IMG/VR virus record: IMGVR_UViG_3300026549_000014
Location: 1 to 41,383 of that record
DNA length: 41,383 nt
Strand: one strand, 5' to 3'
From: a virus
Part shown: positions 3,225 through 41,383 of the stretch, piece after piece
How positions within the stretch are numbered: position 1 is the stretch's first letter
How the letters are laid out: each line of letters opens with the position of its first letter
Program-made: the position numbers and the translations under genes
Notes under the pieces: model-generated
Told to the model about the DNA's origin: nothing
Databases searched by the model: none
What the model saw: only the letters and a program-made list of their open reading frames with translations

Positions 3225-3509
3225 ATGAAGATCAAACATTACATGGAAGCGATTCACGATGAAATGTGCGGCGCAAAGGAATATGCGTTGAAGTACATCG
3301 AATATAAGACATCAAAAAGCGATTGGGCGAGAATGTACGAGGAAATGGCTGAAGCAGAACTCAAACACGCAGAATACTTAAAACAGATGGCGCAGGAATA
3401 TTTTGACGGTCTGGCATGGAAATCCGAAGAATCCAAAATTGAGTGGGAGCATTGCAAGGCAAAGATGGTCGAAAAGGCCGCACTTGTAAAGATGATTTTA
3501 TCTGTATGA
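3225..3509 (+). CDS. Hypothetical helical protein (94 aa, E/K-rich)
   Basis: RBS GGAG. Clean ORF followed by a terminator. Confidence 0.65.
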   Translation: MKIKHYMEAIHDEMCGAKEYALKYIEYKTSKSDWARMYEEMAEAELKHAEYLKQMAQEYFDGLAWKSEESKIEWEHCKAKMVEKAALVKMILSV

Positions 3510-14281: not shown

Positions 14282-14487
14282 CTGACTATCGTGAGGACGT
14301 GTACGTTAAGTGCCCATACTACTGCAAGGAGCGGGCACTGGAGATACGCTGCAAGGGGATGATTGGGCTGCACACTACGCACGACTTTGCAACCAAAGCA
14401 GACAAAGAGGCGTACAAGCGAGACTTTTGCCTGACGCTGTACACCTCATGCCCACTGTATCTGGACTTTGAGCAATACGGAGAATGA
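14278..14487 (+). CDS. Hypothetical Cys-rich protein (69 aa)
   Basis: ATGA overlap. Contains VYVKCPYYCKERALEIRCKG. Confidence 0.6.
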   Translation: MTDYREDVYVKCPYYCKERALEIRCKGMIGLHTTHDFATKADKEAYKRDFCLTLYTSCPLYLDFEQYGE

Positions 14488-14493
14488 GAAAAA

Positions 14494-14518
14494 GGAGATC
14501 GGGAAAATCCCGACCTCC
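14494..14518. terminator. Hairpin terminator between convergent transcription units, with the T-run on the minus-strand side
   Basis: GGAGATCGGGA aaa TCCCGACCTCC (one mismatch). Read on the minus strand it is followed by TTTTT. Confidence 0.6.
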
Positions 14519-14526
14519 TTGCTTTG

Positions 14527-14697
14527 CTATCTGATCTTGTCGTAGATGAGCCCGGTGATCCAGGCGTTGACGGACTTGCCGTCGGCCCTTGCAGCCTCCT
14601 GGATCTTCTCGCGGTCCCCCAGTGGAACGCGGATCCGGATCTGTTCGAACTTGCCTAAATACCTCTCGTGCGCCCGCTTCTGAGCCTCGGTCTCCAT
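14527..14697 (-). CDS. Ribbon-helix-helix (Arc/CopG-like) DNA-binding protein, 56 aa
   Basis: Hand translation: METEAQKRAHERYLGKFEQIRIRVPLGDREKIQEAARADGKSVNAWITGLIYDKIR*. RBS AAGGAGG 5 nt upstream. Shows a beta strand (IRIRV) plus two helices. Not in the ORF track (under 60 aa). Confidence 0.7.
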   Translation of the reverse strand: METEAQKRAHERYLGKFEQIRIRVPLGDREKIQEAARADGKSVNAWITGLIYDKIR

Positions 14698-14729
14698 TCA
14701 TGCCTCCTTACCCCCGGGGCGGGGTACAA

Positions 14730-14951
14730 TCACTCGATGTCTACCCTTGCGTATGCCTCGTCCATGCCGTTGTCATAGATCAGCACAATGTTGTCAGCCC
14801 CCTCGCGGAGTGCCATCTCTGCTGCCTCCTCCGGATTGGTGGAGCCGTCTCCATCATCGATGTCTTCCGGGGTCTGGTGGATTGCGTACCAGGTAGCAAC
14901 GCCGTCCTCTGTTACCGCCTCAAGTCTCTGTGTAAGCTCTTCTCTTGTCAT
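14730..14951 (-). CDS. Hyper-acidic small protein (73 aa; 20 D/E against 4 K/R)
   Basis: AAAGGAG lies 7 nt upstream of ATG 14951. MTREELTQRLEAVTEDGVATWYAIHQTPEDIDDGDGSTNPEEAAEMALREGADNIVLIYDNGMDEAYARVDIE. Confidence 0.7.
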   Translation of the reverse strand: MTREELTQRLEAVTEDGVATWYAIHQTPEDIDDGDGSTNPEEAAEMALREGADNIVLIYDNGMDEAYARVDIE

Positions 14952-14979
14952 TTTAAATCTCCTTTGTTCTATGCGCCAT

Positions 14980-15216
14980 TTACCCGACATTGGCTACTTC
15001 GGCTTTGACATCAAATTCCATATCGTCCAGCCGATAGCTACTAGCACCAGTTTGCACGAACCGGTCGTCAACATAACGCATGTTGTCCATCCATTGATCG
15101 ATGGCGGTCTCAGCATTCTCTGCATTCCACTCGTCTACTTCCTGCCATTCGAGATAACCGTCTGCGGTATTTGCGCTATTTGTTTGCCTAGCAGAAATTG
15201 TGAATTCTCTTGTCAT
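14980..15216 (-). CDS. Hyper-acidic small protein (78 aa; 17 D/E against 6 K/R)
   Basis: AAGGAGG lies 8 nt upstream of ATG 15216. MTREFTISARQTNSANTADGYLEWQEVDEWNAENAETAIDQWMDNMRYVDDRFVQTGASSYRLDDMEFDVKAEVANVG. Confidence 0.7.
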   Translation of the reverse strand: MTREFTISARQTNSANTADGYLEWQEVDEWNAENAETAIDQWMDNMRYVDDRFVQTGASSYRLDDMEFDVKAEVANVG

Positions 15217-15262
15217 CTTATTTTCCTCCTTTGTGTGTGTCCCTCTCTCTTGGGGACAACTA

Positions 15263-15276
15263 TATGGTACCACATA
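15263..15276. promoter_or_regulatory. Operator-like site 1 (TATGGTACCACATA), an imperfect copy of the palindrome at 15309-15328
   Basis: Shares the 12-mer TGGTACCACATA with site 2. The GGTACC cores are exactly 50 bp apart. Confidence 0.5.
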
Positions 15277-15308
15277 CGAGAGGATATACAATCGGCAAAG
15301 TGCACAAA

Positions 15309-15328
15309 CATATGTGGTACCACATATG
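15309..15328. promoter_or_regulatory. Operator-like site 2: perfect 20-bp palindrome CATATGTGGTACCACATATG
   Basis: The sequence equals its own reverse complement. It lies in the divergent intergenic region between the minus-strand cassette and terS. Confidence 0.6.
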
Positions 15329-15378
15329 GAGATTGCACAAAGGTGGTGGCCTATCCTGGCAAAAAGGGGGCCGGTAGA

Positions 15379-25497: not shown

Positions 25498-27045
25498 ATG
25501 GCACAGGTTTTTGACCTTCCGGGATACGATCACGGAGCAAGAACAAGCGCGGCGCTTGAGGCGATCGCGGAAGCCCAGGAGGGGAATACTTCATCCCTGT
25601 CTGCACTTGAGAAGCAGATTGTAAAGGGATACGCGCGTGAGAGAAACGGCAAGGTATTCGCAACCAAGATCTATCGGTTTGCATCCAATACCACCTCTAT
25701 GGGAGAAAGACTCCGGGATTCTGTTGGACTTACCTGCACAGCATCCACAGACACCGTAGCGGGCACGGATGACTTTGCAACCGCATCCCCGATCTTTACC
25801 TATCAGAGATGTAACTACACAAGAGAGGACGACGGAACAGCAAGGCCTATTGCTCTTGAGGGATCCCCGACATATCGCACAAGCGGAGCCTATGATGTCG
25901 GAAACGTATATGCTACATTCTACTGGAATGTGGAGCATCACGGGACTTACGATGTTTTCTATATGTCTGACACTCCGCACCCAGAGCTTGGTCTTGTGCC
26001 CTGGTGTGAGGCTGTAAAAGCCGACGGAACCGTTCTCCCTTTCTATGTGCATTCCTGCTATGCGGCAGCCACGGCATCGGATGGACTGCTCCGGTCTCAG
26101 CCCGGTCTCTCTCCGGCATACAATATCTCGTACAACTCGATGATTACCGCCTTCCAGAAGAAGGGCACCGGGTACTGGGGAGCAGGATCTGAGAGAAATC
26201 TTTGGGGTATGCTGATGCTCATCATCAAGTATGCCACCAAGAACGTTCAGAAGATCTTCCGCGGCCATGCAGATACCTATTCTATGAAGGCGGTGGTGGC
26301 CTATGCAGAGACCGGGACAAAACGTATCCTTATAGCAAGCAACCCCGGATGGTATGCAGGGGCCTGCATTTCCCTCGGATCTGCCGACATTGACCAGGAT
26401 AGTTCTGCCGCACACGACATTGTAGACCGGGCGAAAATCGCAAGCATCGAGAAGGTTACAATCGACAGCACAACGTATGTTGCACTCAATCTGGACGTGT
26501 CGGCAACTTTCGACACCGCTACCACGGAGTACGTGAAGTGGTATCCGACATACACCGGAGAAACCGACAAGGTTATCGGACATCTCGATGGCTCCTATCT
26601 GTCCAATGCTGATGGGAGACATCCCTTCCGGATCCTGGGCACAGAATTTGCGTGGGGCCAGGCTTTTATTGAGTCCAATGCCGTTATGGAGAAGGACGCA
26701 AACGGGGATTGGCTCCAGTACTTTGCTCCGAGAGGAACAAAGCATGTAGCAAACGCACATACAGGCTACGTGCTTGCTGGTAAGATTCCCGGAGCAACCG
26801 GAGACTATTGGAGCGGAGACATCGACGTGGACACCAGGGGCTTTATGTGTCCCTCCACGGTGGGATCGTCTGACGCGCTTGGAACGGGTGACCGAGTATG
26901 GGGACCGCAATCCGGAAGCAAAGGTGATCTGCGAGAGCGATATACCGTCGGCTACCTGTGGGACGGTTCGAACCTCGGCCTTGCGCATGTCCATTGCTGG
27001 AACGTGCTTTCTGGGGCGTCCTGGCACTACGGGTGCTGCGATTAG
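25498..27045 (+). CDS. DGR target protein (probable receptor-binding protein) with a C-terminal variable region
   Basis: 515 aa in the fibre module. The last 34 codons are the VR, which matches the downstream TR apart from substitutions at TR adenines. The C-terminal W/Y/G/C pattern is consistent with C-type-lectin-fold DGR targets. Confidence 0.85.
   Translation: MAQVFDLPGYDHGARTSAALEAIAEAQEGNTSSLSALEKQIVKGYARERNGKVFATKIYRFASNTTSMGERLRDSVGLTCTASTDTVAGTDDFATASPIFTYQRCNYTREDDGTARPIALEGSPTYRTSGAYDVGNVYATFYWNVEHHGTYDVFYMSDTPHPELGLVPWCEAVKADGTVLPFYVHSCYAAATASDGLLRSQPGLSPAYNISYNSMITAFQKKGTGYWGAGSERNLWGMLMLIIKYATKNVQKIFRGHADTYSMKAVVAYAETGTKRILIASNPGWYAGACISLGSADIDQDSSAAHDIVDRAKIASIEKVTIDSTTYVALNLDVSATFDTATTEYVKWYPTYTGETDKVIGHLDGSYLSNADGRHPFRILGTEFAWGQAFIESNAVMEKDANGDWLQYFAPRGTKHVANAHTGYVLAGKIPGATGDYWSGDIDVDTRGFMCPSTVGSSDALGTGDRVWGPQSGSKGDLRERYTVGYLWDGSNLGLAHVHCWNVLSGASWHYGCCD
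26941..27042 (+). repeat. DGR variable region (VR)
   Basis: Gap-free 102-nt alignment to 27116-27217. I count 13 mismatches. Confidence 0.9.
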
Positions 27046-27068
27046 TTCGCCCTGCTTCCGGGGGTGAA

Positions 27069-27103
27069 TGCCGGGCTCTGCCCGGCAGAGGGGATCTCCC
27101 CTC
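27069..27103 (+). promoter_or_regulatory. Two adjacent GC-rich hairpins between VR and TR
   Basis: TGCCGGGC tct GCCCGGCA (27069-27087, 8-bp stem) and GAGGG gatc(t) CCCTC (27088-27103). Confidence 0.75.
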
Positions 27104-27115
27104 AAAGGGTACGGT

Positions 27116-27217
27116 AATACCGTCGGCAACCTGAGGAACGGTTCGAACCTCGGCCTTGCGAATGTCAATTGCAGGAACGAGCTTTCTAGGGCGAACTGGA
27201 ACTACGGGTGCTGCAAT
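27116..27217 (+). repeat. DGR template region (TR)
   Basis: Contains 26 adenines, 13 of which differ in the VR. AAC/AAT codons line up with the variable residues when read in the VR frame. Confidence 0.9.
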
Positions 27218-27401
27218 GGTGTTAAAAGTCCTCAACAGCAGAGGCAAAAGTAAATAGTAATAGGTTACCGTGCGCGCTCATAACAAGCGCCGTTCCGGCC
27301 AGTACCCGGAGCGCCTGTGCGGAATGCACAAAGTGGCTGGGAAGCAGGCGGGCTAGTAGGAAAGCGAACGCTCGTACCACAGCACTAATCGAAAATTTTG
27401 C
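27218..27401 (+). ncRNA. Non-coding spacer between TR and RT, presumed part of the DGR template/priming RNA
   Basis: No ORF. GC-rich with local stems (for example GCGCT cataaca AGCGC at about 27273-27289). The role is inferred from the BPP-1 DGR RNA. Confidence 0.4.
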
Positions 27402-28508
27402 ATGAAGAGAAAATGCAATCATACCGATATTACGGACAGAGAGTTTATCCGGAAAGCAATACACGAGTGTTTTACTCAGAAGGGCAGCAAGGCCTTCGAG
27501 CGAAGCGATGTGAAAGAACTCTTGGAATGGTGTGATCATTCCGAAGAAAAGCTGATAGATATGCTCCGGGCGGAGATCGTAGAAAGGCGGGTATCTCTCC
27601 CTCCTGTCCGTTATGCCGACCGGTACGACCACTCAAACGGCAAGCTCCGGCACATCACAATAGAGCACACCAAAGAGCAGATATACGATTACATCGCATC
27701 GGATGGGCTCGACGAGATTGCCGGGAGAATCGGTCATTATCAGATAGCCTGCAAGAAAGGCCAGGGACCACTCTACGGTGCCAAGGTAATACAGGGATGG
27801 CTACAGGATGAGTCGATCCGATACGGCGTAAAGGCGGACGCGCAGAAGTGCTATCCGAGCATCAGTAAAAGAAACATAATGCGGTGGCTCAGAAGGCACG
27901 TGAAGAATGACGATCTGCTATATCTGATTTACTGCCTGCTCTGTACATCAGACCAAGGCCTTCCGATCGGAAGCTATCTCTCCATCCGGCTGTGCGCTCT
28001 GTATCTCTCTGACCTGTATCATCACATCGAGGGCACGTACTTTGTTGAGAGGCGCGGCAAGAAACGAAACTGTGTAAAGCACGTCATGATTAACCTGGAC
28101 GATATCTATATCTTTGGAACGTCAGCCAAGGAACTTCATAGGGTGATGAACGGCTTGTTACCTTTTGCTAAAGCCATGGGCCTTACGATCAAACCAGACT
28201 GGAGGCTCCTTGATTTGGGGCCAAAGAACCCGGACGCACACATAGATGCGCTCGGGTATCGGATCTATCGGGGCAGGATCACAATGCGGCGCAGGAACTA
28301 CGTTAAAACAAAGAGGGCACAGCGGATGTTTGAGAAGAGCCCAAACATCGTCAATGCCAGGGCACTCGTCAGCTACTACGGAATGTTCGTGAAACACACA
28401 AACAGCAACAGATTCAATCATAAATACCAAGCAAGCAGAGCAGTACGCTCTGCAAGAAAGGTGGTATCGCAATATGATAAAAGCAAGATTCGACGGGAAA
28501 CAGCCTGA
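27402..28508 (+). CDS. Reverse transcriptase (DGR type)
   Basis: RT motifs in order: GVKADAQKCYPSI, LPIGSYLSIRLCALYL, HVMINLDDIYIFG, AKAMGLTIKP, IDALGYRIY. About 368 aa, with no intron maturase or endonuclease domains. Confidence 0.88.
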   Translation: MKRKCNHTDITDREFIRKAIHECFTQKGSKAFERSDVKELLEWCDHSEEKLIDMLRAEIVERRVSLPPVRYADRYDHSNGKLRHITIEHTKEQIYDYIASDGLDEIAGRIGHYQIACKKGQGPLYGAKVIQGWLQDESIRYGVKADAQKCYPSISKRNIMRWLRRHVKNDDLLYLIYCLLCTSDQGLPIGSYLSIRLCALYLSDLYHHIEGTYFVERRGKKRNCVKHVMINLDDIYIFGTSAKELHRVMNGLLPFAKAMGLTIKPDWRLLDLGPKNPDAHIDALGYRIYRGRITMRRRNYVKTKRAQRMFEKSPNIVNARALVSYYGMFVKHTNSNRFNHKYQASRAVRSARKVVSQYDKSKIRRETA

Positions 28509-30688: not shown

Positions 30689-33600
30689 ATGGGGACAAAG
30701 TTTGATGACGACGAGGAGCGCCGCAGAAAGCAGCAACAGGAAAGATTGAAGGCGCAGGAAGATGCGCGCAAGGCAGATCAGGCAGAGGCGGCACGGCAGG
30801 CGGCCAATCTGCGCATGCAGAAGAACGCCATGCACTCTGAGGAGCGCATCTCCGATGAGAACGACAACACCGCGCACTTTGCTCCGAAGGCCATTGACAA
30901 GAAGACCCATCAGGTCACGTCCGGAGGTCAGATCAACGACAACTTCTCCGGATACATCGACTACAACGAGGCCGCAAAGCATGTCACCGCTGATCAGGTA
31001 CAGGCTGCGCACGAAACGCTTTCCGACATCCTCGGGTCTTCACATAGCTCCAAGAAGTATAAGGCATACTTCGGAGACAGCTATATTGACACGCAGAAGC
31101 AGTCCATGCACTCCGAGGATACGGCCTTCCTTGCCAAGGATAACCCTGCTGATACCTCCCTGCAGGCCGCTTACGACTCTGCGGTAAAGTCCCTCAAGTC
31201 CAAGAAAGAGCTCTCCATGAATGGGGAGGGCAATGCCTACAACCTCATGAGCTGGGACAATCCTACGACCCAGACGAGCATGAAGGGTGCATACAACCCG
31301 TTCAAAGACCAGAATGGCTCTATGGAGGACTACTATGCCGATCAGTACAAGCAGGCACAGCAGAACTACAACTACGTCCCCAACGCCCTGCAGAACGCTA
31401 TTGCTTCCGTTTCTCCCTTCGTGAATCCTGTGACAGGGCAGAAGCAGGCGACCGATCAGGACGTCTTCGCGGCCACACAGGCGCGGATGAATGCCTCTCC
31501 GGAGGACCAGTACGCCTATCAGGTAGCGAACCGGCGAAACGACTCCACCGGGTGGCAGACCGGACAGCTATCCGATGCGGACAAAGCTGAACTGCAGAGA
31601 TACCAGAACGCCATCGATGCGGCAAGCAAGGACAAGAATGCTCCGACGCTGAACCCCTATGAGACATACCGGTATCACAACCTCGTGTATGGCTCCCTGA
31701 CTGATGCACAGCGCAAGGCTGTAGACAACTACCAGACTGCCTACGATGAGTACCAGGGGGCTCAGTCTGACCTCAAAAACGGGGCTTCTGATGCGGATGC
31801 AGAGGCAAACTATGCCTCCATCGGTCTGACATCCAACCGGAAGGATAATGCTACCCTCCGGGCCAACGTGGTGTCGGCAAAGCAGAAGGTGGAACAGGCG
31901 CGCAACTCCATGCGGGCAGCAGGGCTCACGGATGAGCAGATCAATAAGTTCGTCGGATCCGATGACACGGACAAAACCTACAAGAACTCCTATCTTGGTT
32001 ACAACAGGAGCTATAAGGACTATCTGGACACGCAGGACGAGGCCAAACAGGTCACGGGCAGGAATGATGCCTGGGGCCTTTATAATCGTGCCGCGTCCGC
32101 TGTCGTGTCTTCTGCGGTCTCCCCGATTACCAACATTGGGTCCTTCGTCAACTCGCTTGGGGCAAAGTCTGCCGACCCCGGAACCTCAAAGAATGTCTAC
32201 GGCAACAAACTGAACAATGCCATGGACGCTTACAGAGCCGGAAACTCTGCGTATATGGGGAAGACTTACGGCAAGGCCGGAGAGTTCCTGTACAATGCCG
32301 CGCAGTCCGCCGGGGACTCGTTTGTCAATGGCATGATCATGGGCCCTGTCGCAAACAAGGTCTCCGGAGCCGCCGGAAAGATTCTTGGGAACGGAACGAA
32401 GGCTGCCTATGTGGTTGATAAGCTGAGCAATCTTGTGGGCTCCTCTGCCTTTGGCGCTGGAGCTTATGCGGACCGCATCAGAGAAGGCCAGGAGCGCGGA
32501 CAGAGTGCCGCCGGAACACAGGCTGCAGCTGTCGGTGCGGGCCTTGCGGAGATGGTGACTGAGGCGTGGTCTCTGGATTCCTTCACCGACATCCTCACGA
32601 AAAAGGGCGCAGCAGCCATGCGCAATACCCTTTCCAACATCCTCGTGCAGGCAGGCGTAGAGGGATCCGAGGAAGCCGCTGGCGATATCATGAACCGCGT
32701 GATCGACGACGCGGCTAATGGCAAGAACTCCGAGTACAGGCAGGCTGTGTCTGCATACCAGAAGCAGGGCATGACCGAGAAGCAGGCGAAGAAGAAGGCC
32801 AACGTGGACTTCCTCTCCGATACTCTGCAGGATGCACTGGCCGGTGCTCTGTCCGGTGGCGTGCTGGGCGGAGGTGCGCATGTCATGAACAACATGCAGA
32901 CCGCACAGCAGGCACAGACCGAGACCGCAGGGTATACCTCCGAGGACTTCCGGAACACCGCGGAGAGCTACAAGAAAGCCTCCGAGGGGATGACCGATAC
33001 TGGCGCACAGAAGTACTACAACGACGCAGCCAAGGCGGCAAACGATATCGCAGACCGCATGGACTCCGGGAAAAAGGTGAGCTCCTCCCTGTACTCCAAA
33101 CTGTACAACTCTGCCTATGAGGCGGAAGGAATCGAGAGCGAGAACCGGAAGCCTTCCGAGGAAAAGCAGGAGGTCACTCCGGACGATCAGGTCCACTTTA
33201 CTGTCCCCGAGGGAGCAAAGACGGTCGAGGAGGCCCTCAACTCTGGGGAGTCTGCACAGGAAAAAGTGAACAACATGGACCGGATCTTTGCGCGCAAGTC
33301 CAATAACATGGGCGCAGGGAATGTCCATGCCGCGATGCAGAGCGCACAGACCGCGCAAGAGCTCGTGGCCGCAAAGCGTGAAGCCGATATGTCCACTGAT
33401 GCCTCCGCACGCGATATCTCCGAGGCTTACTACAACCTGTACCAGGGACGCATGATCCAGAACGGACAGGCGACAGCAGAGGATTTCCAGAAGGCAGAGG
33501 CCTCCCCCACCATGCAGGAGGTTTATCAGGCCGCGAAGGAAGGCCATGCGCTCAACATCTCGGAGTCTGACCCCATGGATCTCCGGATGGCACAGAATGC

Positions 33601-36600
33601 GGGCAAACAGGCCAACATCCTGCTCAACTCGAACAGCGTGCTGGAGAATCAGGATCTTTCCAACGTGCAGATCCATCCTGCCACACAGAAGTCCGAGGCA
33701 TACGCAACCATCGACGGCAAGGACTACAGCCTCGACTCCCTCAACGATACAATCCAGAACCGGGCTTTACGTGTCCGCGTGGCCGGTGCAAGTCAGCAGT
33801 CCACGCAGGAGCTGGCAGACCTGTATCTCAAAGACGCGCCTCAGGGGATGAGCGAGGGGAGATGGAATACCACCTTCTCAACTCTGGAGGCTGGCGGAAG
33901 CGCAGGCAGAAACTTCGACGAGGCTTACAAGGCCATCGGCGGGTCTGCGGCCATGGTTGACGCTGACACTGCACGGCAGATCTACAATGCCGGGGCTGCG
34001 GCTGCACAGGCGCAGATCTCTGAGAATGTGAAGCGCTCCGGACAGTCTGTGGCGCGATATGGCACCGGATCCGTGATTGACTCCCGCAAGAACAGCAAGG
34101 AAGCCCTTCCCTATATGCCTGTCGTTGAAGCCATGGCCAAGGCTACGGGGGTGGATTTCTACCTCTCTGATGACGCCCCGAGCAATATCAACGGCACCTT
34201 TGACCGGGCGATGTCCCGCGTCATGATCAATACCAACAACTCCGACGCTGTGCTCAATACCCTGTTCCATGAAGGCATGGGCGAGTACATGCAGGCGTAC
34301 AATCCGGAAGGCTACAAGAGCGTCCAGAAGCTGGTATCTGACTACCTCGTAGATACGGACGGCCTCAAGAATGTTGCCGCAATCGGAAAGAAGTATCAGA
34401 GAGCATATCAGGCCGTGGAGGGAACCAAGTCCTTCTACGATGCCATGAGCGAGGCCGTGAACGACTCTATCGCAGGCATGTTCTCCACGGATGAGGGCAT
34501 CAAGCAGTTCACGGACTGGACCTACAAGCACGACAGCAGTCCCAAGTCTGCCCTGCAGAATGTCGCGGACTACTTCAAGCGCATCGGCGAGGCGTTCCAT
34601 AACCTCATCACGACCGGGCATCTCTCTGGCACTTCCCAGAGGACGGCACGGATGGCAGAGGATAGGGCAAGCCATATCCGGCAGATTATCCTTGACGAGA
34701 TGGACAAGGCTGTGGAGAACTCTAAAGCCGTCAGCGTTGATGAGAGTGCAAAGAGCGGAGTAGCATACTCCCTGGCTTCAAACGAGGAACAGACAGATAA
34801 GACGGAAAAACCTACAGAGCACCCGAGTGAATACTCCGATCTCCGCCATTCTCTGAATGACATCGGAGATGATGACTTCTTCTCCACTATGGGTACTGAG
34901 GAGAACCCAGACGATCCTGACGTAAAGCGCCGGCACGAGCTCATGGCTGAAGCTGAGAAAGCCCTCTCTGATGTGCATGTAGACGACAAGTATCTCAAGG
35001 TAACGGCCAAGGGGATCATTGACAGCTTTGGGTCCAGCTACGACAGCAAGACTCTTGCCGAGAACCTGCGCAAGGTGTTCTCCTATGCCAAGACGCACGA
35101 GGGATTCATGGGTTCCTCTGACTATGAGGGGATCATGGACGACGTGCTCCGGCCTGTGATGGAGGCATCCGAGCAGACAGACGACACCCAGCTCCGTCAC
35201 GTAAAGGAGATCATGGCCGCGCATCCGTTCCATCTCACTGCAGACCAGATGGCCATGGTGAGTGATGACTACCGCGGATGGAAGGCGCAGTATCCGGAGC
35301 TCAAAGTATCCAAGAACGCACCTTCTACGCTGGACCAGCAGTTCAGTGAGATCGCGGACCAGCTCCGGCAGGCAGGCATTGCGGATCTTGATGAATCAGC
35401 CAACGAGACGGACCAGCTCACGGAACTGTTGGATGCCATCGACTCTGCGCAGCCTATCTCCCTGTATGCCTTCTCCAACGAGGAAGACGCACAGCAGGCT
35501 GTAAAAGATATGGCCGATACCGTAATGACGTCCTATCTGTCTGCTGCAGAGGCTGACGCGCAGGGGCAGGCGCTCGTGCGGATCCGGACGGCCAGAGACC
35601 GAATCATCGACGAGGGCAAGGCGCGCAGAAAGAAAGCAAGCCAGGATTATCAGGCAAGACTTTCCGCTGCTCGCAAGGACATCGCAAAGTCCAACCGCAG
35701 TTTCAAAGGACAGGGCCTTTCCAACGATGAGAACGTCAAGCGCTTAACCAGCGCCGCAGAGAGCCTGGAGGCACAGGCAAAGGAACTCAGGTCTCAGGCG
35801 CTTTCCTCCGATGCAAAGACCGACCAGGCAAAGCTGGCAACCCTCAATGCCAAGGAGAAAGCGTCCGCTGATAAGGCCGCACTTATGCAGAGAATGAGAG
35901 AACAGAGGGCGGCAGCACTGGAGAGGCAGGCACAGCAGTACCGACAGACCGTAGCGAGACTCAAGACACAGTACCACTCCAAGGCGGAGCAGCTTGCGCT
36001 TACCAAGGCCAAGAACACAGAGAAGTGGAAGAACTACCGCGAGAAGCAGGCGCGCAATGCAGAACTGGAGAAAATCACCAAGAGCTACGACAGCCTGTAC
36101 AAGCAGCTCATGCATCCCACGGACGAGAAACACATTCCGGAGGAGTTCAAGTCCGCTGTAGCAGAGTTCCTGGACTCCATCAACATGATCCGGCCCGACA
36201 TCCGGTACGATAACAAGAGCGGAGTGTACCGCCTCCGTATCTGGGACGGTACCTTCGAGAAGGACGGGAAGGCGCACTACACGGAGAGCGGATATTCCAC
36301 CTATAACGAGGCATACCAGGCGTTCTATCGGTATGTCTTCGAGGATAACGGCACTCTCTCCTCCAAGAACGCGACCATCCGGGCGAAGATGCAGGGAGTG
36401 CGCGATCTGTACGAGCAGGCAGCAAAGGAAGATGAGGCAGAGAATATCTCTCAGCTCCTCGACCCGGATCTGTATGAACGCCTCAAGACACTCTCGAGCA
36501 GGAATGTAGCCGCACTGAGCAGTGATGAGCTGCACACGATCTCCCTTGCCCTGCAGAACATCCAGCATGCGGTAAACAACGAGAACGAGCTGTTCAGACA

Positions 36601-39427
36601 GTCGCAGAGCCCGAAGGCAATCTATGAATCCATCCGGGATCACGCAGACAGTGTGCATGGCAGGCAGTCCCATCGGCCCGGAACGGACAAACTTCTCGAT
36701 TTTTTATCACTCGACAACGCTACCCCGGAGACCGTGTTCCACGGTCTGGGCAAGGGTGGAGACTCCGTTTTCAAGGAGTTTGTTAAGGCTAACAATATGA
36801 AGAGCCGAGACCTCCGCACCGCTCAGGAGTACATGATCGGGGACGGGAGCACAGACCACGGCGTTTACAAGTCCGGCGCGCTGAAGGGCGTGAGCCAGAA
36901 ACAGCTCCAGGAATGGTCCACAAAGTCGATCACTGTACACGGTAACATCCGTATGACCTACGGCCAGATCATGGGCCTGTATGAGCTTGCAAAGCGGCAG
37001 CAGGCTATGCTCCACACAGTGGGAGGCATCTCCATTGATAACTTCCTCGATGAGCGCCACAAAAAGGTCACGCAGGGCAGAGCATACCTGTCCGCCTCCG
37101 AGATCCAGGCTATCGTGGACAGCAATCTTACAACACAACAGAAGCAGGTCGCGGATGCCATGCAGAAGTTTATGGCGCAGGAGTGCTCCTCCTGGGGGAA
37201 CGAAGCGTCCATGCTGATGTATGGGTATAAGAAGTTCAACGAGGAGAACTACTACCCGATCACGGTGGACAAGAAGGTACTCTCCACAAAGAACGCTGAT
37301 GTTGCACAGGCCGCAGTAAACGCCATCAAGAACATGGGGATGACAAAAGCAGTTGTTCCCAACGCCAGCAATCCTCTCGTGGTTAAGGACATTTTTGATG
37401 TGTACACAAACCACGTCGCGGACATGGCCACCTACCACAGCTATGCCGCTCCACTCGCTGACCTTCTCCGAGTGCTGAACTACAAGGAAGTCGTGGAGCG
37501 GGGTGGGTACAAGAACTACGATACGGTAAAGGATGCCATTACCAAGATTTACGGCGACGGAGGGGTACGGTACATCACGAATTTCATCACCGACATCAAC
37601 GGCCGAGAGCGGAGCAGCTACATCAATCCGCTCGGGTGGCTTACGAGCAACTACAAGGCCGCCGCGGTCGGATGGAATCTTCGCGTTGTGCGGCAGCAGC
37701 CCACGGCAATATTCCGGGCGGCTGACGTGATCTCTCCCAAGTACCTCATGGAGGGCCAGATTCTCAATAAGGATGCCATGGAGATGCAGGATCGCACCTC
37801 CGATATGACATGGGAGAAGAAGCAGGGCAACGTGGACGGCTACATCTATAAGTCCATGAAGCAGACACTGACCGGGGCAGCTACCCCTGTAGAAAAGCTC
37901 CGGAACGCATCGATGTCCCTTGCCGGGAAGGCCGATGACTTCACCTGGAGGCGTATCTATAATGCAGCCTATCTGGAACAGAGAGACAAGTTCCGGAAGG
38001 AAGGCAAGGCCACATCCGGCAAGGCATTCGAGGATGCTGTGAATGACCGGTTCGATGAGATCATCGTGCGGACACAGGTCACAGACGCGACGATTCTGCG
38101 CTCTCAGTTCATGCGGAGCAAGGATACCTTGAACCAAATCCAGAGCGCGTTTATGGCAGAGCCTACAAAGTCCTACAACATGTTCTTGCGGGCTGCCATG
38201 GATGCGGTACAGCAGTCCAACGGAAAATGGATTGCCGGCAAAGTGCTATGGGGAATGAAGAAGGCCGCGGCGGTCTACCTCGTGACACAGATCTTCACAG
38301 CCCTTGCCCAGTCCTCTGTGGACTGGATCCGCAAAGATCCGGAAGACGGAGAAGACGTGGCAGAGTTCATGCTCCGGGTCTACAAGGACAACTTCTTTGA
38401 TGACCTGAATCCCCTGAACCTCGTTCCGATCCTGAAGGACGCTTCCAACTCTATCCAGTCACTCATCTCGTGGGCGAAGGGAGAGCCTACATACTCGGAT
38501 GACAGCCGCATGGATATCGCATCGCTCAATACGGCGATCAAGGCCGTGGAGAACACTGCAAAGGCAATCATGGGAAAAGGCACGGTCTATGGCGCCCTTT
38601 ACTCCGATATCAAGGCCTTATCTCAGATCATCGGAATTCCTGCCGCCAATCTGATACGAGATGTGACAGCAGTAAGAAACAAGCTGAACAACATCCAGAG
38701 CGTGCATGATCTCATCGGCGGAGACTGGAAAACCACAATGCCTTCGCAGAAAGAGAAGATCCTCGACGCATACAAGTATGGAGATCTCGGAGACCTGGCA
38801 TCCAGAATTGTTGACAGCAAGACGGCAGACGCGCTTGCAGATAACGCCGACGATATCAAGGAGGGAAACATCGAGAAGGCCGCAGTGGAGAAGCAGGCAA
38901 GGTCCGAAGCGCTCACGACTATCCTTGGCTCGTTCAAGAAGCAGTACCAGGCGGCAGACGATGCTACCCGGAAGGAGATGAAGGATAAGCTCACCTCCCA
39001 GCTCAAGAGCGCAGGATTCAGTGAGGAGGCCATCGACGAAAAGCTCGGCAACTGGACCGATGTAAAGCTCAAGAAGGACGCGAACGGCTATAAGAACATC
39101 GACCCTGTGACCGGAGAGAAGACCTCCGTGGGCGATGTCTTCAAGACGATCCGCACAGGATCCGGAGACTACAAGAAGGAAATCGACAAGGCCATAAAAG
39201 CAGGCAAGACCTACAAACAGATTGAAACCGACATCACAAGTGCCTTTAAGGCTCAGTACCTTGCGGACTACCAGAAGAGCCCGTCCTCGGTATCACAGCT
39301 CAAAAACAGGCTTGCCGCAGTGTACAAGTACCTCGACGACCAGGAGATTAAAGAGGGGACGCAGCAAAAGGAGACGACATCCAGACAGTGGCTGGATGAT
39401 CCAGCAGCCTACCTCAAAAGCCATTGA
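30689..39427 (+). CDS. Giant 2912-aa protein (about 21 percent of the genome), probable multi-domain virion/ejection protein
   Basis: A single uninterrupted frame with RBS AAGGAGAG. Contains a Gly/Ala-rich hydrophobic segment (about nt 32270-32900) and a long K/R/Q/A coiled coil (about nt 35570-36110). Terminator downstream. Confidence 0.85.
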   Translation: MGTKFDDDEERRRKQQQERLKAQEDARKADQAEAARQAANLRMQKNAMHSEERISDENDNTAHFAPKAIDKKTHQVTSGGQINDNFSGYIDYNEAAKHVTADQVQAAHETLSDILGSSHSSKKYKAYFGDSYIDTQKQSMHSEDTAFLAKDNPADTSLQAAYDSAVKSLKSKKELSMNGEGNAYNLMSWDNPTTQTSMKGAYNPFKDQNGSMEDYYADQYKQAQQNYNYVPNALQNAIASVSPFVNPVTGQKQATDQDVFAATQARMNASPEDQYAYQVANRRNDSTGWQTGQLSDADKAELQRYQNAIDAASKDKNAPTLNPYETYRYHNLVYGSLTDAQRKAVDNYQTAYDEYQGAQSDLKNGASDADAEANYASIGLTSNRKDNATLRANVVSAKQKVEQARNSMRAAGLTDEQINKFVGSDDTDKTYKNSYLGYNRSYKDYLDTQDEAKQVTGRNDAWGLYNRAASAVVSSAVSPITNIGSFVNSLGAKSADPGTSKNVYGNKLNNAMDAYRAGNSAYMGKTYGKAGEFLYNAAQSAGDSFVNGMIMGPVANKVSGAAGKILGNGTKAAYVVDKLSNLVGSSAFGAGAYADRIREGQERGQSAAGTQAAAVGAGLAEMVTEAWSLDSFTDILTKKGAAAMRNTLSNILVQAGVEGSEEAAGDIMNRVIDDAANGKNSEYRQAVSAYQKQGMTEKQAKKKANVDFLSDTLQDALAGALSGGVLGGGAHVMNNMQTAQQAQTETAGYTSEDFRNTAESYKKASEGMTDTGAQKYYNDAAKAANDIADRMDSGKKVSSSLYSKLYNSAYEAEGIESENRKPSEEKQEVTPDDQVHFTVPEGAKTVEEALNSGESAQEKVNNMDRIFARKSNNMGAGNVHAAMQSAQTAQELVAAKREADMSTDASARDISEAYYNLYQGRMIQNGQATAEDFQKAEASPTMQEVYQAAKEGHALNISESDPMDLRMAQNAGKQANILLNSNSVLENQDLSNVQIHPATQKSEAYATIDGKDYSLDSLNDTIQNRALRVRVAGASQQSTQELADLYLKDAPQGMSEGRWNTTFSTLEAGGSAGRNFDEAYKAIGGSAAMVDADTARQIYNAGAAAAQAQISENVKRSGQSVARYGTGSVIDSRKNSKEALPYMPVVEAMAKATGVDFYLSDDAPSNINGTFDRAMSRVMINTNNSDAVLNTLFHEGMGEYMQAYNPEGYKSVQKLVSDYLVDTDGLKNVAAIGKKYQRAYQAVEGTKSFYDAMSEAVNDSIAGMFSTDEGIKQFTDWTYKHDSSPKSALQNVADYFKRIGEAFHNLITTGHLSGTSQRTARMAEDRASHIRQIILDEMDKAVENSKAVSVDESAKSGVAYSLASNEEQTDKTEKPTEHPSEYSDLRHSLNDIGDDDFFSTMGTEENPDDPDVKRRHELMAEAEKALSDVHVDDKYLKVTAKGIIDSFGSSYDSKTLAENLRKVFSYAKTHEGFMGSSDYEGIMDDVLRPVMEASEQTDDTQLRHVKEIMAAHPFHLTADQMAMVSDDYRGWKAQYPELKVSKNAPSTLDQQFSEIADQLRQAGIADLDESANETDQLTELLDAIDSAQPISLYAFSNEEDAQQAVKDMADTVMTSYLSAAEADAQGQALVRIRTARDRIIDEGKARRKKASQDYQARLSAARKDIAKSNRSFKGQGLSNDENVKRLTSAAESLEAQAKELRSQALSSDAKTDQAKLATLNAKEKASADKAALMQRMREQRAAALERQAQQYRQTVARLKTQYHSKAEQLALTKAKNTEKWKNYREKQARNAELEKITKSYDSLYKQLMHPTDEKHIPEEFKSAVAEFLDSINMIRPDIRYDNKSGVYRLRIWDGTFEKDGKAHYTESGYSTYNEAYQAFYRYVFEDNGTLSSKNATIRAKMQGVRDLYEQAAKEDEAENISQLLDPDLYERLKTLSSRNVAALSSDELHTISLALQNIQHAVNNENELFRQSQSPKAIYESIRDHADSVHGRQSHRPGTDKLLDFLSLDNATPETVFHGLGKGGDSVFKEFVKANNMKSRDLRTAQEYMIGDGSTDHGVYKSGALKGVSQKQLQEWSTKSITVHGNIRMTYGQIMGLYELAKRQQAMLHTVGGISIDNFLDERHKKVTQGRAYLSASEIQAIVDSNLTTQQKQVADAMQKFMAQECSSWGNEASMLMYGYKKFNEENYYPITVDKKVLSTKNADVAQAAVNAIKNMGMTKAVVPNASNPLVVKDIFDVYTNHVADMATYHSYAAPLADLLRVLNYKEVVERGGYKNYDTVKDAITKIYGDGGVRYITNFITDINGRERSSYINPLGWLTSNYKAAAVGWNLRVVRQQPTAIFRAADVISPKYLMEGQILNKDAMEMQDRTSDMTWEKKQGNVDGYIYKSMKQTLTGAATPVEKLRNASMSLAGKADDFTWRRIYNAAYLEQRDKFRKEGKATSGKAFEDAVNDRFDEIIVRTQVTDATILRSQFMRSKDTLNQIQSAFMAEPTKSYNMFLRAAMDAVQQSNGKWIAGKVLWGMKKAAAVYLVTQIFTALAQSSVDWIRKDPEDGEDVAEFMLRVYKDNFFDDLNPLNLVPILKDASNSIQSLISWAKGEPTYSDDSRMDIASLNTAIKAVENTAKAIMGKGTVYGALYSDIKALSQIIGIPAANLIRDVTAVRNKLNNIQSVHDLIGGDWKTTMPSQKEKILDAYKYGDLGDLASRIVDSKTADALADNADDIKEGNIEKAAVEKQARSEALTTILGSFKKQYQAADDATRKEMKDKLTSQLKSAGFSEEAIDEKLGNWTDVKLKKDANGYKNIDPVTGEKTSVGDVFKTIRTGSGDYKKEIDKAIKAGKTYKQIETDITSAFKAQYLADYQKSPSSVSQLKNRLAAVYKYLDDQEIKEGTQQKETTSRQWLDDPAAYLKSH

Positions 39428-41048: not shown

Positions 41049-41383
41049 ATGGTAGTAGTAGACCCTAGCACATGGATATCACTGGCTGCAGTGACAATCA
41101 GCCTTGTCTTTGGCGTACTCAACGCCGGGCACGCAAGCCAGACGGATGTAAAAGAGCAGCTTGAGGATGCAAGACGCGACGCGGCGCAGCAGGCCCGGAT
41201 CGAGACGAGCTTGTCGACGATCCGGCAGGACACCGGAGACATCAAGTCGGACCTGAGAGGGCTCAAGTCGGACATGCAGGACATCACGACGCGGCTGGTC
41301 AAAGTTGAGCAGAGCGTGAGCTCCGCGCACAAGAGGATCGATGAGATCGTAAAAAGAGAGGGAATGGAAAATGATCAACTGGA
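41049..41383 (+). CDS. Lysis-cassette membrane-anchored coiled-coil protein (5' part; continues through the end overlap to stop at 144-146; 117 aa in total)
   Basis: RBS GAGGA. N-terminal TM helix WISLAAVTISLVFGVL followed by a charged coiled coil (IKSDLRGLKSDMQDITTRLVKVEQSV). Overlaps the holin start. Confidence 0.7.
   Translation, partial: MVVVDPSTWISLAAVTISLVFGVLNAGHASQTDVKEQLEDARRDAAQQARIETSLSTIRQDTGDIKSDLRGLKSDMQDITTRLVKVEQSVSSAHKRIDEIVKREGMENDQL

Follow-up and report, generated by a model that had tools for sequence, protein, structure and literature searches.

The DNA analysed here, referred to below as the window, is a stretch of 41,383 nucleotides (nt) covering positions 1 to 41,383 of the viral record IMGVR_UViG_3300026549_000014 of IMG/VR, and the element in question is a short opposite-strand cassette within it, in which two genes for small and extremely acidic proteins, denoted A and B, are followed by a gene, C, for a ribbon-helix-helix (RHH) protein. 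Analysis of the sequence and comparison with related loci lead us to a reading that we hold with slightly better than even confidence: the cassette would be a self-contained, horizontally mobile and autorepressed operon of the kind in which anti-CRISPR genes are coupled to a regulator (acr-aca), and its protein products, or cargo, would likely block the nucleic-acid-binding surfaces of host proteins, those of defence systems being the favoured targets. The architecture itself is well supported, while the anti-defence function is something that we infer from it.

An initial annotation had placed three consecutive minus-strand genes in positions 14527-15216, each behind a strong Shine-Dalgarno sequence, had assigned the 56-amino-acid (aa) third product to the Arc/CopG type of RHH proteins, had given the unit its own hairpin terminator (14494-14518) and two palindromic copies upstream, and had counted 17 acidic (D/E) against 6 basic (K/R) residues in A and 20 against 4 in B. 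This description holds up in all these respects (Table 1): the three open reading frames (ORFs) are present, Shine-Dalgarno motifs lie 5-8 nt ahead of each start, the Arc profile of Pfam scores C above its gathering cut-off, a scan recovers a 13-pair hairpin followed by a T-run, the palindromes are two copies of TATRTGGTACCAYATA that are unique in the window, and the residue counts are exact. The GC and AT skews are inverted across ~14450-15350 and not elsewhere nearby, the plus-strand pattern resuming on either side, which fits a local strand switch. Pairwise ratios of nonsynonymous to synonymous substitution rates (dN/dS) range from 0.07 to 0.26 in nine of the ten comparisons with estimable dS (0.07-0.17 for C and 0.1-0.26 for B; dS was saturated in three further comparisons), the tenth, of the near-identical pair formed by A and locus L001, giving 0.71 at a dS of 0.05. 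These low ratios, together with confident AlphaFold2 models of A and B, indicate that A, B and C are genuine coding genes.

The evidence that carries the proposed operon comes from its variants, in which a conserved regulator accompanies exchangeable cargo. Sister phages, with a DNA identity of ~90% on either flank, have their cassette in the corresponding place, on the opposite strand and between the early genes and that for the small terminase, and keep an identical promoter/operator block as well as the RHH gene, while the intervening genes vary: A and B precede C in the window; B and proteins of 152, 66 and 90 aa precede the RHH protein in L009, L011 and L012; B and proteins of 149 and 91 aa do so in L010; and, in L020-L023, the place is taken by a single 149-aa fusion (P0020), whose N-terminal half is 54% identical to B and whose C-terminal half is 45% identical to A, and which is indexed in 27 collection blocks. 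All cargo proteins are acidic (isoelectric point, pI, 4.05-4.13), homologues of C are encoded last in every cassette variant, and B is promoter-proximal in every regulated variant recovered except that of the window, where A comes first. The module also occurs in unrelated temperate phages, with the operator pair, the leader, B (100% aa identity), proteins of 64 and 86 aa and an RHH protein ~84% identical to C, lodged between a serine recombinase gene and convergent lysis genes, the prophage-end position where accessory (moron) genes are classically found. A diversity-generating retroelement is present in these phages, whose two RHH variants have index entries in 76 and 37 collection blocks. 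Lytic-looking and temperate carriers share lysis genes and probably share hosts.

Other phages pair B with other regulators. In a temperate lineage (L006-8, L013-16, L019), B, sometimes with an 87-aa protein, is followed by a 145-aa protein ending in a different Arc-like RHH domain (phrog_3180, 1.5e-5), and the promoter, TTGCGT-17-TGcTAATAT, is flanked and overlapped by two TTTGTACAAA palindromes. An AT-rich phage that encodes a protein-primed DNA polymerase has yet another, third RHH type (RHH_5, 3.6e-6): in its left early operon, a B homologue with 47% identity is followed, after one small intervening ORF, by the gene for this regulator. The window-type RHH gene always accompanies TATRTGGTACCAYATA, in two copies (one in a deletion variant), and the 145-aa regulator always accompanies two TTTGTACAAA sites; since the operator tracks the type of regulator and never the phage backbone, this covariation is the best in-silico evidence that the RHH proteins bind the palindromes. 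Among the features that mark acr-aca loci, the cassette has small cargo genes in one operon with a small DNA-binding regulator, inverted repeats in the putative operon promoter, a conserved regulator with variable cargo (four sets in one slot), and a presence in unrelated mobile elements.

The cargo genes also lead a life outside this arrangement, with A and B together in the early operon of L018 and A in the early region of L001 and L002, in neither case with a dedicated regulator, and with an A homologue in L003/L004 between an integrase gene and genes with LPD29 and DarA_C domains, a context reminiscent of polyvalent-protein or anti-defence regions in mobile elements. The adjacency of A and B in both orders, their fusion and their co-occurrence in L018 may be taken as a Rosetta-stone hint of joint action, each being found alone as well. 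Side observations on these loci include, in L003/L004 (4992-8750), the start of the A homologue, 70% identical, 14 bases past the integrase gene, and an LPD29 protein with an apparent N-terminal J-domain motif (HPD, seen by eye and without profile match) that is followed by the small DarA_C protein, a gene with a GmrSD_N domain lying nearby in L004. The 145-aa regulator (L006 4400-4837, L013 1937-2374, L019 6293-6730) joins an uncharacterised N-terminal domain of ~105 residues to its C-terminal RHH. Two further variants, a deletion in L039 (~3300-3376) that takes out operator O2 and the putative promoter core, and a frameshifted and truncated B (35 aa) in L044 (1641-1800), suggest ongoing decay or turnover of the module.

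By its sequence, C ranks as a bona fide Arc/Mnt-family RHH protein. It matches the Pfam family Arc (PF03869) at 4.2e-5, with 23.7 bits against a cut-off of 20.4, as well as HicB (4.5e-5) and phrog_13890 (1.4e-11), has the succession of beta-strand, helix, G-x-S-x-N and helix that defines the family, and aligns with AmrZ, Mnt and Arc in the PDB across IRIRVPLGDREKIQEAARADGKSVNAWI, including the diagnostic strand and the G-K-S-V-N helix cap. It comprises little beyond the bare DNA-binding domain, with a short N-terminal extension (~18 aa), and is the predicted autorepressor of the cassette. A 40%-identical protein is the Arc-like repressor of Flavonifractor phage Castelnaud, a phage without acidic cargo; scans of IMG/VR with C and with the small terminase yielded no additional relatives.

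The sites at which C is predicted to act lie just upstream of A. The TATRTGGTACCAYATA pair constitutes the sole matches in the 41 kb with three mismatches allowed, against a chance expectation of 0.35, and none of 100 shuffles reached this count. The two operators, O1 and O2, are 50 bp apart, with the centre of O1 ~60 bp upstream of the small-terminase start (15379, plus strand), and O2 is kept in the sister phages and in the temperate phages with the same RHH gene. A relaxed scan places a candidate promoter here, with a -35 hexamer TTGTAT (15291-15286, minus strand), a 16-nt spacer and a TG-extended -10, TGgTACCAT, the same geometry being kept in the window, L020 and L032; the arrangement mirrors that of the better promoter of the other lineage, with 47 nt from -10 to start codon in the window and 52 nt there. 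The predicted leader, of ~41 nt from a putative start near 15257, would carry at its 5' end a hairpin that is kept in relatives with changes in loop length and that would leave the Shine-Dalgarno sequence free. An operator scan of IMG/VR gave single, chance-like matches only, and a scan of the metagenome collection for operator plus leader gave nothing.

With net charges of -11 and -16 and a pI of ~4.05 for both, A and B differ in how far they stand out from the rest of the window: the net charge per residue of B (-0.22) is beyond that of all 47 plus-strand window ORFs (mean -0.016, sd 0.059, minimum -0.16), and that of A (-0.14) is near the plus-strand extreme. Structure predictions, which the initial annotation had proposed for both, gave confident AlphaFold2 models, with a mean predicted local distance difference test (pLDDT) score of 85.9 for A (two strands, helix, three strands) and 89.4 for B (helix, strand, helix, strand, strand), and A and B are compact, cytoplasmic proteins of unrelated folds. 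The B family has a conserved core, TW[YF]A..D..DG.GS...LIYD.G.D..Y, with invariant T20, W21, A23, D30, D33, G34, G36, S37, A47, I55, L57, I58, Y59, D60, D64 and Y67, a pattern that points to a specific fold and interface and not to an undifferentiated run of acidic charge.

Searches for relatives of these proteins among characterised families came back empty. A, B and the other cargo proteins have no significant match in Pfam, PHROGs, NCBIfam or PADLOC; A and B have none among PDB sequences in single-protein or profile searches, and none by Foldseek among PDB folds (best E-values 0.46 and 1.1), and neither matches Ocr or ArdA by Foldseek against the PDB or in Pfam. A single structural lead for A, chain 9lkj_A (77 aa, from the entry titled 'Cas9-sgRNA-A27', which we take from that title to be AcrIIA27), was set aside as insignificant and too weak to use, with a TM-score of 0.57, a probability of 0.35, an E-value of 3 and no sequence similarity. 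Matches in BFVD were limited to uncharacterised proteins of gut siphoviruses, nucleotide and protein searches of INPHARED found nothing for A or B, and B is absent from 185,579 reference species genomes, save for one spurious 18-residue match. An HMMER search run exhaustively over 1.8 billion representatives recovered just eight B-family clusters, several of which carry the B domain at the C-terminus of proteins of 141-172 aa.

The shared MTRE starts of A and B, behind similar leaders, had been taken in the initial annotation for a sign of paralogous 5' ends. The duplication of ATGACAAGAGAA is real (15205-15220 and 14940-14955, 94% identical), but the paralogy is refuted by the starts of A homologues, all nine others of which begin MKFTISARQ or MRYNIIARQ, and direct comparison of A with B rules it out as well (BLASTP E 3.8, hhalign probability 0.5%). 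The operator-leader block of the sister phages continues directly into the ATGACAAGAGAAGAG of B; at the window junction the same block is followed by ATGACAAGAGAA joined to TTCACAATT, the bases right at the joint being ATGACAAGAGAA|TTCACA. The first four codons of A (15205-15216) are those of B, joined in frame to A from the third codon of A, and a full-length B with a second leader begins 28 nt past the stop codon of A. Because other A proteins start with MKF or MRY and because of the sequence at this junction, A is a recombinant at its start and not a paralogue of B: it was inserted promoter-proximally by recombination at the gene start, gaining the promoter, the leader and the first four codons of B. 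Comparable gene-boundary junctions or leader scars are found elsewhere, downstream of B in L018 and in L006-8.

In L006, L007 and L008, ~340 bases upstream of B (e.g. L006 3531-3585) and directly past the serine recombinase gene, an orphan window-type leader with the first six B codons, GAGAGGGACGCACACAAGAAAGGAGAACCAAGATGACAAGAGAAGAGCTT, is fused to a sequence resembling an attachment core of tRNA 3'-end origin and looks like the scar of a cassette replacement. In L056, the phage with the protein-primed DNA polymerase, the B homologue (509-751) begins MMYTINARQ, resembling the native (K)FTISARQ of A, and three consecutive early genes stand behind the same ~35-nt leader (CTATCGGCA.GACGGGGAGA.AAGAGGAAA; intergenic 240-280, 470-510 and 760-800), a pattern that may be a further sign of recombination at gene starts.

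Among known systems, the cassette most resembles in its probable working the acr-aca operons under Aca14, a documented RHH-type regulator of anti-defence genes (Nucleic Acids Res 2026, PMC13551039), and also the regulon of Reg576, a documented RHH regulator of establishment and anti-restriction genes in plasmids of the Bacillus pLS20 family (PMC8708921). With the former it shares small cargo genes followed by a small DNA-binding autorepressor (predicted in the cassette), a regulator that is RHH and not helix-turn-helix, an inverted repeat over the -10 of the operon promoter (a candidate -10 in the window), and a conserved regulator with variable cargo spread across mobile elements. It differs in that the window cargo includes no known Acr, that two operators lie 50 bp apart, that its host is likely a gut Firmicute and not a Proteobacterium, and that C, compared with Aca14 by description only, is a minimal Arc-type RHH protein of 56 aa, whereas Aca14 has a long helical extension. 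The 145-aa regulator recalls, by analogy, the bifunctional Acr-regulator fusions, such as AcrIF25 with its RHH domain (PMC13551039). In the Reg576 regulon, too, RHH operators flank strong promoters of small, mostly uncharacterised and often-replaced genes in Firmicute hosts, with transient expression on entry into a new cell, as we infer for the cassette; the likeness is one of description only, and the regulon is plasmid-borne, comprises several operons and has a recognisable ardC, a marker without counterpart in the cassette.

More distant likenesses are instructive in their differences. The immI region of P22 likewise has Arc/Mnt RHH proteins, self-repression (predicted for C) through a ~20-bp palindromic operator, and a setting among late genes with a P22-type portal, but there arc comes first and the cargo is a 300-aa antirepressor, while the cassette has its RHH gene at the end, small acidic cargo that is interchangeable, and no Ant domain. 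Ocr, ArdA, Ugi, p56 and AcrIIA4 are, like A and B, small, cytoplasmic and of pI ~4, a likeness in bulk acidity, and are expressed early, as A and B would be, yet have no sequence or Foldseek similarity to them; moreover, the conserved TW[YF]A, DG.GS and LIYD.G.D..Y of B look like the core of a specific fold or interface and not like a generic charge array.

A working scheme can be proposed on this basis. On DNA entry, or in the lysogen in the case of temperate carriers, host RNA polymerase would initiate at the TG-extended -10 inside O2 and transcribe A, B and C as far as the terminator hairpin (14492-14520). As C builds up, it would bind O1 and O2, likely as dimers of dimers, on the same face of the DNA; on O2 it would occlude the -10, and O1, five helical turns upstream, could add cooperativity. 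With the promoter thus shut off, A and B would be made in a brief burst when the phage enters, or kept at a low steady level in lysogens, and transcription that runs head-on to the plus-strand genome and divergent from the packaging genes would also be removed, a logic for which there is experimental evidence in Aca repressors (PMC13551039) and Reg576 (PMC8708921). The role of A and B would most likely be to occupy the positively charged surfaces with which host proteins contact DNA or RNA and so to block them, a defence system being the preferred candidate. Small acidic cargo, rapid turnover, mobility, autoregulation and early or prophage-end positions together point to early, host-directed genes of an arms race.

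Several points weigh against an acr-aca-like anti-defence operon. A and B match no known Acr, anti-restriction or other anti-defence protein in sequence or in fold, nor any characterised protein, in searches that did not extend to dedicated anti-defence profile libraries, and the anti-defence function is guilt by architecture; small acidic early phage proteins are common and have many other roles. A strict scan finds no consensus sigma-70 promoter, and the one proposed is weak and needs relaxed rules. DNA binding by C, repression and the timing of expression are predictions, the window-lineage operators adjoin the small-terminase gene, and C could have a second or different role. The acr-aca or anti-defence proposal of the initial annotation thus stands as regards anatomy, cargo swapping and mobility, but gains nothing from homology: no relationship of the cargo to a validated Acr/Aca family appeared in Pfam, PHROGs, NCBIfam, PADLOC or PDB sequences and folds, and none to Ocr or ArdA.

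The main rival keeps this architecture and changes the target, with A and B as acidic decoys, possibly DNA mimics, that would act against housekeeping DNA-binding proteins during host takeover, uracil-DNA glycosylase, HU or other nucleoid proteins and RNA polymerase being possible candidates. Such inhibitors have established precedents in p56 of phi29, whose gene is located in the left early operon, Ugi of PBS2, Gp46 of SPO1 and Gp2 of T7, and the extreme acidity, small size and cytoplasmic nature of A and B would suit this role, as would the B homologue in the left early operon of the phage with a protein-primed DNA polymerase and the occurrence of A and B in early operons without a dedicated regulator (L018, L001, L002). 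Neither A nor B, however, matches Ugi, p56, Gp46 or Gp2 in the PDB in sequence or fold, and housekeeping inhibitors are usually fixed in the phage programme, whereas the cargo here is freely swapped, traded and found at a prophage-end site, which is more typical of arms-race genes; we consider takeover of housekeeping proteins unlikely. Less probable again is a developmental or immunity switch like immI, in which C would time the divergent packaging/late operon and the acidic proteins would be antirepressors or factors in superinfection or competition. The Arc/Mnt affiliation of C, the P22-type portal of the phage and the placing of the module beside the recombinase in temperate carriers would fit, as would the window-lineage operators, 60-110 bp upstream of the small-terminase start in a 162-bp divergent region (15217-15378) where no sigma-70-like promoter for packaging or late genes was found and no other late promoter is evident. 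Yet temperate phages with the same promoter and RHH gene have no divergent late gene, so that control of the small terminase cannot be the conserved role; the order of genes is the opposite of arc-ant, where the regulator comes first and an Ant/Bro antirepressor follows, and ANT and Bro-N domains are absent from all cargo; and no integrase or repressor occurs among the ~30 window ORFs scanned, so that in the phage of the window an antirepressor would have no cognate repressor.

The weak Pfam matches of C to HicB and TacA-type antitoxin DNA-binding domains might seem to point to an RHH antitoxin, and hence to a type II toxin-antitoxin or addiction module, but this reading is very improbable, and the initial annotation, which saw no basic toxin-like partner, was right to set it aside. 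At 56 aa, C is a near-bare RHH domain that leaves no room for a C-terminal toxin-binding tail, it is encoded last and not first, and the acidic proteins encoded with it have no toxin-family match and are exchanged freely for unrelated ones. The autorepressed acr-aca-like operon, with cargo aimed by preference at host defence, is hence the reading that we favour. A bolder form of it, which we put forward only tentatively and would not expect to hold in full, is that A and B are the halves of an inhibitor of new fold, directed at a defence system of gut Clostridia, and that B and the three unrelated RHH types mark a broad family of RHH-gated anti-defence loci in phages of gut Firmicutes.

Table 1. 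Positions of the cassette genes and of the candidate control elements in the window.
Feature	Position	Strand	Description
Gene A	15216..14980	minus	78 aa
Gene B	14951..14730	minus	73 aa
Gene C	14697..14527	minus	56 aa
Shine-Dalgarno of A (first gene)	15225..15232	minus	AAAGGAGG
Shine-Dalgarno of B	within 14956-14967	minus	AAGGAG
Shine-Dalgarno of C	within 14702-14711	minus	TAAGGAGG
Intrinsic terminator hairpin	14492..14520	minus	13 pairs (7 G-C), 3-nt loop, TTTCTCATTC tail
Operator O2, near-palindrome	15260..15278		core TATGTGGTACCATATA; palindrome 15261-15276
Operator O1, perfect 20-bp palindrome	15309..15328		CATATGTGGTACCACATATG; palindrome core 15311-15326
Candidate TG-extended -10	TG 15271-15272, TACCAT 15264-15269	minus	mid-O2
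Candidate -35 hexamer	15286..15291	minus	TTGTAT; weak, inferred
Leader hairpin	15238..15258	minus	TGTCCC-loop-GGGACA; RNA fold -8.9 kcal/mol, z = -2.56

The cassette interrupts a genome of otherwise familiar order on the plus strand. A CHAP endolysin gene at the left end is followed by an early/replication block (Gp157, ERF, a G39P-like protein, DUF551), which terminates at 14487, convergent with the cassette and with the shared hairpin alone in between; beyond the cassette come the small terminase (true start ~15379), the large terminase, the P22-type portal and structural genes. Scans for Rfam families and tRNAs gave no match in the window. As the related loci L019 and L046 match the last 127 bases (41257-41383) and the first bases (1-983) of the window contiguously, running across both ends, the window probably represents an entire phage genome of ~41.4 kb, circular or circularly permuted, with overlapping ends. 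The nearest portals (38-51% identity) are from uncultured phages of human faeces; the closest portal relative, MT835607, was set aside as not syntenic and uninformative for the cassette. Elsewhere in the window, a diversity-generating retroelement (25498-28508) comprises a reverse transcriptase gene (RVT_1, 5.9e-9; 27402..28508), a template repeat (27117-27217) and a variable repeat (26942-27042) at the 3' end of a 515-aa ORF (25498..27045), the repeats being 88% identical with an A in the template copy at every mismatch, and a 2912-aa plus-strand ORF (30689-39427) in the tail region has no Pfam match at E <= 0.001.

Known anchors for Acr and Aca searches come mostly from Proteobacteria, Listeria and Streptococcus, and the anti-defence genes of phages of gut Firmicutes are for that reason, to our knowledge, almost unexplored. 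The organisation described here is of a known type and not surprising in principle, but its cargo families are new and uncharacterised, and the case is well delimited and testable. Acidic families that are still uncharacterised number at least five at the locus (A, B and the proteins of 152, 90 and 66 aa); its cargo swaps, its gene fusion and its exchange among lytic-looking and temperate phages amount to natural experiments that point to a function in an arms race; and the RHH gene with its paired palindromes makes a signature that can be searched for in other genomes. If B and the three RHH types do mark such a broad family, B and the regulators could anchor guilt-by-association searches, as aca did for Acrs, and the acidic proteins of 152, 90 and 66 aa would be further new inhibitors. 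Should the cargo prove to hit housekeeping proteins, the cassette would still be a clean case of the modular exchange of autoregulated accessory genes; should an anti-defence role be borne out, it would bring inhibitors of new fold and extend RHH control of the Aca14 kind to a new group of hosts.

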